Virus record (IMG/VR): IMGVR_UViG_2671180456_000012
Reading direction: 5' to 3' (one strand)
DNA: 36,283 bases
Source: a virus
Lineage: Duplodnaviria; Heunggongvirae; Uroviricota; Caudoviricetes
How positions within the stretch are numbered: the first letter of the stretch is position 1; every line of letters begins with the position of its first letter. The notes under the pieces were generated by a model that searched no databases, had not been told where the DNA came from, and worked only from the letters and a program-made list of their open reading frames with translations. This document shows, in pieces, positions 35,487 to 36,283 of the stretch. The position numbers and the translations under genes were made by a program.

Positions 35487-36235
35487 ATTCGTAATGATTA
35501 CCTAAATACGTTATTCTTTTGTTAAAAAAGTGATTTTGCTATAGGTAGGGAGTATGTTCTTGGATTAAGAATAAAAAATCGCCATGAAAGAGCTTCATGG
35601 CGAGTACATAAACGTACAAAATGTGATGAAAGTAGAGTGGCGTAAGCCACTATATTAAGATATGACAATAGCGAAGAAAAGTAAATAACATTTTATGGAC
35701 GTTTAATTGTTAATTATAAAAACTAGAGTGCCCGATATTGTTTATCTTGCTTTAAAATAATGTACTCAAACCAAATTTTTGAGCTAAAAGCTCAAATAAT
35801 ATAAATGCAATAATAATGTTTAATAAGACAATTAGCTTGCTTTGTATTTTCATTTCGGAATACTGTTAAGTAACTTTGATGACCCTAACAATAGATCGGA
35901 ATTTTCTTAGAGTCAATGGTCACTGTTTTTGCTTGCAAAGCAAATGTTTTGGTGGTTATAAGTTGTCTTAATATAGTCACGCATGCAACTTGTTCCATGC
36001 GGAGATTAAAGATTGGAATATAACGCGAAGATGGAATTAAATTACATTTGCAATAATCAATTTATTATTACTCAATAATTACCGATATTATTATTGTAAA
36101 TTAATCATTAGAGTGCAAAAAGAAATGTAACGGCAAAATAAGAGGACGATAGCTGAGAAAAAAGCGTGCTTTCCCAATCTGGGGCAAATCACGTCTGAAT
36201 GACACCTGAAAACAGGTGGTAGCCTCAAGAAGGCT

Positions 36236-36283
36236 GGTGATGCTGCCAACTTACTGATTTAGTGTATGATGGTGTTTTTGAGG
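36236..36283. mobile_element. IS1 terminal inverted repeat and first 48 bp (element continues beyond the window)
   Basis: GGTGATGCTGCCAACTTACTGATTTAGTGTATGATGGTGTTTTTGAGG matches the canonical IS1 end sequence as recalled. Confidence 0.85.

Follow-up and report, generated by a model that had tools for sequence, protein, structure and literature searches.

The AT-rich stretch behind the tail fibre genes of a scaffolded viral record: lambdoid accessory DNA with a fossil serU attachment arm, a shared IS1 allele and a candidate YncL-like gene

The AT-rich DNA that follows the tail fibre assembly gene tfa in the window (the whole stretch of DNA analysed, 36,283 nucleotides, IMG/VR record IMGVR_UViG_2671180456_000012) is, from sequence comparison, the first 750 bp of a non-essential, b-type accessory region belonging to a widespread lambdoid prophage of E. 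coli. We consider it quite probable that the right end of the window is best explained by the combination of this lambdoid b region, which holds a small leftward unit made of ORF33 and a terminator, with the arm of a fossil serU attachment site, an IS1 allele and a scaffold misjoin. The stretch would consist of three parts, namely a conserved module with the small leftward unit (35487 to about 36064), a short linker, and a serU-type arm (36151-36235). The finding as first stated in an earlier note is an ordinary one, a prophage accessory region that a common IS1 allele interrupts where the contig ends. The lambdoid accessory region is a common one and the IS1 insertion is well known; the one new feature is a likely unannotated gene for a YncL-like membrane protein of 33 residues. 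The features discussed below are the following.

31473-31493, no strand: scaffold gap of 21 N at the switch from phage-plasmid to lambdoid prophage, placed by the break in homology and by a repeat shared by the contig ends
32532-32550, no strand: second scaffold gap, 19 N, in the Ala/Ser repeat of stf, adding 276 bp
34905-35486, plus strand: tfa (tail fibre assembly), an ORF of 193 aa annotated in relatives as tail fiber assembly protein; left boundary of the stretch
35487-36235, no strand: AT-rich start of the lambdoid accessory (b) region, identified from GC content, identity with TUM9757 and phage context
35487-36064 (right end approximate), no strand: module a, a conserved spacer 3' of tfa, common to lambdoid prophages with differing cargo to the right
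35569-35603, minus strand: predicted intrinsic terminator, leftward, with the stem at 35603-35579 and then a U-run
35636-35654, minus strand: second conserved hairpin, AGUGGC-UUAC-GCCACU, upstream of the terminator (-11.7 kcal/mol, z = -4.6)
35853-35752, minus strand: ORF33, 33 aa, MKIQSKLIVLLNIIIAFILFELLAQKFGLSTLF, probable YncL-like small membrane protein, proposed from constraint and a YncL match
35916-35888, minus strand: promoter-like TTGACT-17-TATTGT, a consensus match only, with a predicted start about 27 nt upstream of ORF33
35928-35944, no strand: palindrome TTTGCTTGCAAAGCAAA, not significant
36151-36235, no strand: outer 85 bp of a fossil serU-type att arm, identified from its continuation in the IS1-free locus L001 and from the arm in E. 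coli 042
36236-36283, plus strand: left end of IS1 (IRL and following bases), insA rightward, reaching the contig end; identical to an annotated IS1A in L002

A widespread lambdoid accessory region

The stretch from 35487 to 36235 (749 bp) has a GC content of 31.6%, against 48.1% for the window as a whole. Its longest complete ORF has 48 aa, and one ORF of 52 aa crosses the IS1 junction, which confirms the earlier description of some 750 bp that are AT-rich and free of ORFs of 60 aa or more. This lack of ORFs is uninformative, because 75% of shuffled versions of the 749 bp also hold no ORF of that size. The accompanying term "gene-free" is probably wrong, given the minus-strand ORF of 33 aa at 35853-35752 with protein-level constraint and homology to YncL that is considered below. 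PGAP annotates nothing in the stretch among the genome matches listed.

Matches to the stretch occur in 1343 of 5426 complete E. coli genomes, 280 of them at full length, and the match is chromosomal in every case; in E. coli TUM9757 the stretch is 100% identical. Plasmid copies number zero both among the 5426 complete E. coli genomes and in PLSDB. The phage matches amount to four records, which represent three plaque-forming lambdoid phages, mEp332 (L003), ev099 (L004) and PhiR70_1 (L005). These phages share the order J, lom, stf, tfa, about 1.5 kb of unannotated AT-rich DNA, a gene for an AraC-family regulator of 247 aa, IS2-type remnants, attP and int/xis, with the lambda core GCTTTTTTATACTAA immediately ahead of int, and the chromosomal copies of the prophage adjoin ybhB-bioA, which is the lambda attB site. 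The stretch therefore occupies the position of a lambdoid b region in both states, between stf-tfa and attP/int in the three phages and beside attR in the ybhB-bioA prophages. Since it runs uninterrupted in mEp332, PhiR70_1 and ev099, we regard it as native accessory DNA and not as debris of the IS1 insertion. The earlier proposal that the region beyond the fibre genes had been disrupted or replaced by IS1 thus holds for 550 bp further downstream, which IS1 does replace, but not for the AT-rich stretch itself.

Like the b region of lambda, the stretch is dispensable, rich in AT and situated between stf-tfa and attP/int, and it is associated with a lambda-type att site; it also shares with that region and with the 'moron' zones a variable cargo, here an AraC-like regulator, sitABCD or IS fragments. 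None of the four matching phage records is lambda, and the phages that carry the stretch differ from the lambda b region by a fossil serU att site with 278 bp of host sequence and by the small leftward unit, which is conserved. No traces of the lysis or invertase genes that had been suggested for the AT-rich segment, or of any other gene, were detected when all small ORFs and all six frames with stops masked were scanned with Pfam and PHROGs. An Rfam scan at E values up to 1 returned a single match, IS009, inside the tfa coding sequence. This match (35248-35446, plus strand, full length, 218 bits) lies wholly within tfa, and it probably reflects conserved coding sequence instead of a separate RNA gene.

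The left part of the stretch, module a, recurs in prophages that differ to its right. It is about 96% identical in a prophage adjoining ydfJ (L006), and in BH100 and GF47 (L030 4001-8178, L029 4001-8361) it has tfa on one side and, on the other, the sitABCD operon for an iron/manganese transporter, which is read leftward. Because the cargo to its right varies among prophages, module a can be described as a conserved junction module that marks a general point of cargo insertion. GF47 additionally has an MFS efflux gene and tfa fragments beside module a.

A candidate YncL-like gene with a structured 3' end

Read leftward, module a presents in order the promoter-like site, ORF33, a variable spacer, the conserved hairpin (35654-35636) and the terminator (35603-35569). 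The reading frame of ORF33 is intact in 24 of 24 haplotypes, drawn from 56 loci. Between the window and the divergent copy in GF47, ORF33 shows 17 nucleotide differences and only five amino acid changes (P = 0.0008 for five or fewer under random placement of the same substitutions), and the differences fall 7/1/9 on the first, second and third codon positions (P = 0.006 for one or fewer at the second position); most of the other small ORFs of the region are broken in GF47. This pattern suggests that ORF33 is probably under purifying selection at the protein level, in a test that covers three protein lineages and rests mainly on one divergent comparison.

The protein comparisons point to YncL. 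The NCBIfam model for YncL (NF000537) matches ORF33 with 25.0 bits (E = 1.3e-5), and because this is below the curated cut-off of 35 bits, ORF33 is to be read as a distant homologue of YncL and not as an equivalog. In BLASTP against K-12 YncL, 11 of 28 positions are identical in an ungapped alignment (E = 2e-7). The two proteins are of similar length (33 aa for ORF33 and 31 aa for YncL of E. coli K-12), each has a single hydrophobic helix, and they share the pattern LxN...A..LF.L...FG. ORF33 has a GRAVY value of 1.51 and a best 17-aa window of 2.94, compared with 1.34 and 2.34 for YncL, so that it has the form of a YncL-type protein, about 30 aa with one hydrophobic transmembrane helix. It differs from YncL in being prophage-borne and unannotated, and also in its upstream sequence, where no Shine-Dalgarno motif is recognisable, whereas yncL has AAGGTGG. 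At the DNA level, the region has no similarity to the K-12 yncL locus. A scan of genome contigs for relatives of ORF33 gave nothing usable and no homologues from other species, and an exact-sequence look-up showed just two previous predictions of the peptide, both unnamed. YncL itself has been validated as a small membrane protein induced by stress, and its production leads to sublethal membrane depolarisation and nucleoid condensation (PMC12542507).

The structures downstream of ORF33 are conserved as well. The hairpin at 35579-35603 has a stem of 10-11 bp and a folding energy of -15.2 kcal/mol (z = -5.4), which none of 200 shuffles equals. On the minus strand the stem, which contains GC pairs, is directly followed by UUUUUUAUUC, and there is no U-run on the plus strand, so that the hairpin has the form of a Rho-independent terminator on the minus strand, as the earlier note had proposed. 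GF47, with a copy about 80% identical, has the same stem apart from its outermost pair. The second hairpin lies within the best-conserved block of the region (35565-35660), in which 87 of 96 positions are identical in GF47. RNAalifold detected no base-pair covariation for the hairpins in the three lineages. A further hairpin that had been noted at about 35928-35943 is at chance level, with TTTGCTTGCAAAGCAAA folding at -4.7 kcal/mol (z = 0.08) and 87 of 200 shuffles doing equally well. The terminator would end the ORF33 transcript, and transcripts that come leftward from int-side promoters or from cargo (sitABCD, for instance) would be stopped there as well, before they could run antisense into tfa and stf; we propose this insulating role.

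Taken together, these observations incline us towards ORF33 being a real gene, which would then be transcribed and translated. We put forward more tentatively, as a serious possibility, the fuller proposal that a conserved leftward gene with a conserved, structured 3' end lies unannotated in the spacer, that it encodes a YncL-like membrane protein of 33 aa and is carried by about 15% of complete E. coli genomes and by plaque-forming lambdoid phages, and that its product could depolarise the membrane.

The opposite reading takes the stretch as a purely non-functional, decaying spacer of the kind silenced by H-NS, in which ORF33, the promoter-like site and the hairpins are chance features of AT-rich sequence. 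H-NS typically silences horizontally acquired AT-rich DNA, and an ORF-free stretch is what this composition would lead one to expect. Promoter-like sites are no more numerous in the stretch than in shuffles (five found, 3.9 expected). In GF47 the -35 hexamer of the site ahead of ORF33 is identical and its -10 is TATCGT. The lack of a Shine-Dalgarno motif, of any Rfam, Pfam or PHROG match and of covariation is also in keeping with a spacer, as is the silence of PGAP among the genome matches listed. Against this reading, the conservation in GF47 is meaningfully patchy, with 91% identity in the terminator block, 83% in ORF33 and 65-67% in the flanks; ORF33 stays intact through mainly synonymous change while most other small ORFs break; it is matched by the YncL model and by BLASTP; and shuffled sequence comes nowhere near the stability of the terminator hairpin. 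We therefore judge a spacer without function to be unlikely. Less likely still is a type I toxin-antitoxin system that stabilises the prophage and is composed of ORF33, with its long and conserved 3' UTR, and an overlapping antisense RNA. The peptide would suit a toxin, since it is small and hydrophobic with a basic N-terminus, and YncL overproduction does depolarise the membrane (PMC12542507). Its 3' region is long and conserved, and an antisense RNA could start from a promoter-like site on the plus strand, at 35662-35691. That site is, however, a consensus match at only 9 of 12 positions, and a terminator on the plus strand was not found. PADLOC matched no defence model to ORF33 (nor to the AraC-family regulator described below), Rfam found no antitoxin RNA, and NCBIfam matches ORF33 to YncL alone, a protein for which no role as a toxin paired with an RNA antitoxin is described.

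If the proposal of a YncL-like gene is correct, ORF33 might modulate host physiology, exclude superinfecting phages or act in a toxin-like manner. Annotation pipelines have probably overlooked a small membrane protein encoded in the spacer of hundreds of genomes, which would be an addition to the growing number of small proteins connected with stress and the membrane.

A fossil serU attachment site

The right part of the stretch, from 36151, can be followed beyond the window in loci without IS1. In the IS1-free locus L001 the arm (6665-6859) continues for a further 110 bp and abuts the last 62 nt of the tRNA-Ser gene serU (nt 29-90, at 6860-6921), after which come 278 bp of K-12-like chromosomal flank (6922-7199, 97% identical). 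A repeated TTGATTTTTCG motif can be seen by eye in L001. This succession of arm, tRNA 3' fragment and native host flank, as expected of a serU-type att site, is found in the IS1-free relatives and recurs in E. coli 042 as the right end of a prophage integrated at serU. Because the latter is a true prophage end, the accessory region must hold a fossil attR together with captured host DNA. The working att site of these phages is of the lambda type, and the arm is for this reason best seen as a fossil without a current function.

An ancestor would have excised imprecisely from serU, leaving the arm behind, and would later have gained a lambda-type int/att module; we infer this order of events, an old imprecise excision followed by acquisition of the lambda-type module, from the arrangement of the fossil. 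The presence of a serU fossil with 278 bp of host DNA in plaque-forming phages is a clear record of imprecise excision and subsequent replacement of the integration module.

The plaque-forming phages mEp332, ev099 and PhiR70_1, which use lambda attB, still carry the 62 nt of serU and the 278 bp of host DNA, and both are absent from the IS1 allele. In E. coli EH031, a prophage beside uspF-ompN (L008 4896-5300) shares the serU-type arm and the first 18 nt of the tRNA-like core, beyond which the similarity is lost; its segment is bounded by direct repeats of about 40 bp (…TTTCGATAGTGC.AGTAT…GATTTCCAGCCG), which may be a second, nested att-site fossil.

An inherited IS1 allele with an adjacent deletion

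The final bases of the window (36236-36283) begin with the IS1 terminal inverted repeat GGTGATGCTGCCAACTTACTGAT... and match the opening 48 nt of the IS1A copy annotated at L002 6750-6797 without a difference, with agreement at 148 of 148 positions across the junction. The statement that the window ends in the first 48 bp of IS1 is correct, and relatives that share the junction carry an element of 768 bp annotated with the insA/insB frameshift. Several draft contigs with the junction end 31, 48, 72, 90 or 98 nt into IS1. The end of the window, 48 nt into the element, is an assembly break of this kind, since IS1 is a multicopy repeat in which short-read assemblies are interrupted.

The exact left junction was found in 79 complete E. 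coli genomes and 12 IMG/VR contigs, the right junction (from IS1 to the region upstream of the AraC gene) in 101 genomes, and the empty site in 829 genomes. All four of the junction-bearing genomes that were opened carry the junction in a lambdoid prophage, and three of the four continue to ybhB-bioA at lambda attB. A scan of genome contigs for the junction gave nothing usable. In L002, the one genome aligned in detail, IS1 replaces 550 bp that correspond to L001 6750-7299 and comprise the rest of the att arm, the serU fragment and the captured host DNA.

A target-site duplication flanking IS1, which the earlier note had named as something to look for, is not to be expected, and it is not present in these relatives, where 550 bp of the empty site are missing instead. 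The flanks of the element in L002, AAGAAGGCT and CTTATTGGC, differ and lack a 9-bp duplication, and a simple-insertion form with such a duplication was found in none of 5426 genomes. IS1 prefers AT-rich targets and can cause adjacent deletions. The allele resembles other IS1A insertions with an adjacent deletion in its identical 48-nt end and its AT-rich target; it differs from an ordinary IS1 insertion in that the 9-bp duplication is lacking, 550 bp are missing beside the element, and the allele is inherited and not fresh. This last point follows from its occurrence in 79-101 genomes and from the absence of a simple-insertion form, which indicate that IS1 and the deletion are inherited together. 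IS1 would have inserted into the fossil att arm, with the next 550 bp lost in the compared relatives, and established IS1 biology suggests two possible mechanisms, an adjacent deletion or recombination that involved two copies of IS1.

Outside the window, the AraC-family regulator (L001 7506-8249, 247 aa, phrog_1450) is phage cargo. It has full-length similarity to YdeO (E = 2e-43) as well as similarity to GadX, both below the equivalog cut-offs. IS1 lies about 200 bp upstream of the regulator gene in L002, L026 and L028, and it might alter expression of this YdeO-like regulator. In STEC409 (L027 5001-7564), the same left junction of IS1 is followed by a truncated htrE, which encodes a Yad fimbria usher, and not by the AraC gene. 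This replacement implies a large rearrangement mediated by this IS1 copy, and for the same reason the AraC gene cannot be assumed to lie past IS1 in the genome from which the window derives.

A scaffold that joins a phage-plasmid to a lambdoid prophage

Most of the window is of a different origin from the AT-rich stretch. Positions 244-31472 belong to a phage-plasmid of the SSU5 family (SSU5, Cyrano and pHCM2-like IncFIB plasmids), with 98-99.6% identity to plasmid p1 of E. coli WEM25, 82% identity to Salmonella phage SSU5, and 99.7% identity to Escherichia phage Cyrano over the terminase-to-capsid genes. The match to Cyrano and to WEM25 p1 breaks off at 31472, in the middle of the plasmid fibre gene. 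Past the 21 Ns at 31473-31493, the sequence resumes at the lom terminator of a lambdoid prophage and continues with a complete stf, and the final piece (32551-36283) is 99.9% identical to the lambdoid prophage contigs L018 and L023. In contrast to the body of the window, the AT-rich region is absent from every plasmid searched and does not belong to the SSU5 family; it has no plasmid places, and homology in PLSDB stops at the end of tfa (that with plasmid-borne tfa genes at about 35468). The earlier claim that the phage region is embedded in a bacterial replicon, as a prophage or a phage-plasmid, can accordingly be kept for a chromosomal prophage, given the 79 complete genomes with the junction, and not for a phage-plasmid as far as the AT-rich segment is concerned, which is never on a plasmid.

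The patterns at the gaps indicate how the two parts came to be joined. The pieces that end at 31472 (the plasmid fibre) and at 32531 (the 5' part of the lambdoid stf) share a terminal repeat of at least 140 nt, and since both end in the same repeat, they can be read as alternative entries into a collapsed repeat that were placed in series. A scaffolder would thus have joined the piece from a chromosomal prophage (32551-36283) to the SSU5-family phage-plasmid through the shared repeat of the fibre genes. As the phage-plasmid body meets the lambdoid segment only across N gaps in this repeat, the suspect junction is that at 31473-31493 and not the one with IS1, for which a chimeric origin had been considered. 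On these sequence patterns, the linkage between phage-plasmid and lambdoid prophage is very probably an assembly artefact.

The alternative is that the scaffold is real, so that an SSU5-family phage-plasmid would be a novel hybrid, having gained a complete lambdoid stf-tfa and the first part of the accessory region by recombination that had IS1 at one of its boundaries. All pieces do lie in one scaffold, SSU5-like plasmids naturally carry stf/tfa genes that are 91-95% identical to lambdoid ones, and IS1 is common on plasmids (13,769 plasmid places), with this copy taking part in rearrangements such as that in STEC409. The junction, however, lies exactly under a run of Ns, and the sequence resumes at the lom terminator, ahead of a complete second fibre gene and not within the homologous fibre repeat. 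The 5' fibre pieces of the plasmid and lambdoid types end in the same repeat, as alternative paths would, and the AT-rich region occurs on no plasmid among complete E. coli genomes and PLSDB. Elements of the SSU5 type carry holin, endolysin, Rz/Rz1, a KacT toxin-antitoxin and ParA after the fibre gene (as in Cyrano, WEM25 p1 and S56 plasmid B), and this normal continuation of lysis cassette, KacT toxin-antitoxin and ParA is missing after the fibre genes in the window. We consider a real hybrid highly improbable, and reading the window as one would rest on an assembly artefact.

The misjoin has a counterpart in an independent assembly (L066 1-2404, IMGVR_UViG_2671180490_000011), where two slightly different copies of the lom end and stf 5' part stand in tandem with a single N between them; this tandem is the same scaffolding artefact as that in the window. 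Further runs of Ns inside the plasmid part (301; 1133-1143; 25496-25497) are each flanked by duplicated contig overlaps of 2-9 nt, and because of these overlaps we read all three as scaffold gaps and not as bases masked in place. The gap at 32532-32550 adds 276 bp (92 aa) to stf, made up of 257 bp of repeated sequence and the 19 Ns, and this addition, which is absent from every relative compared, is probably an artefactual duplication.
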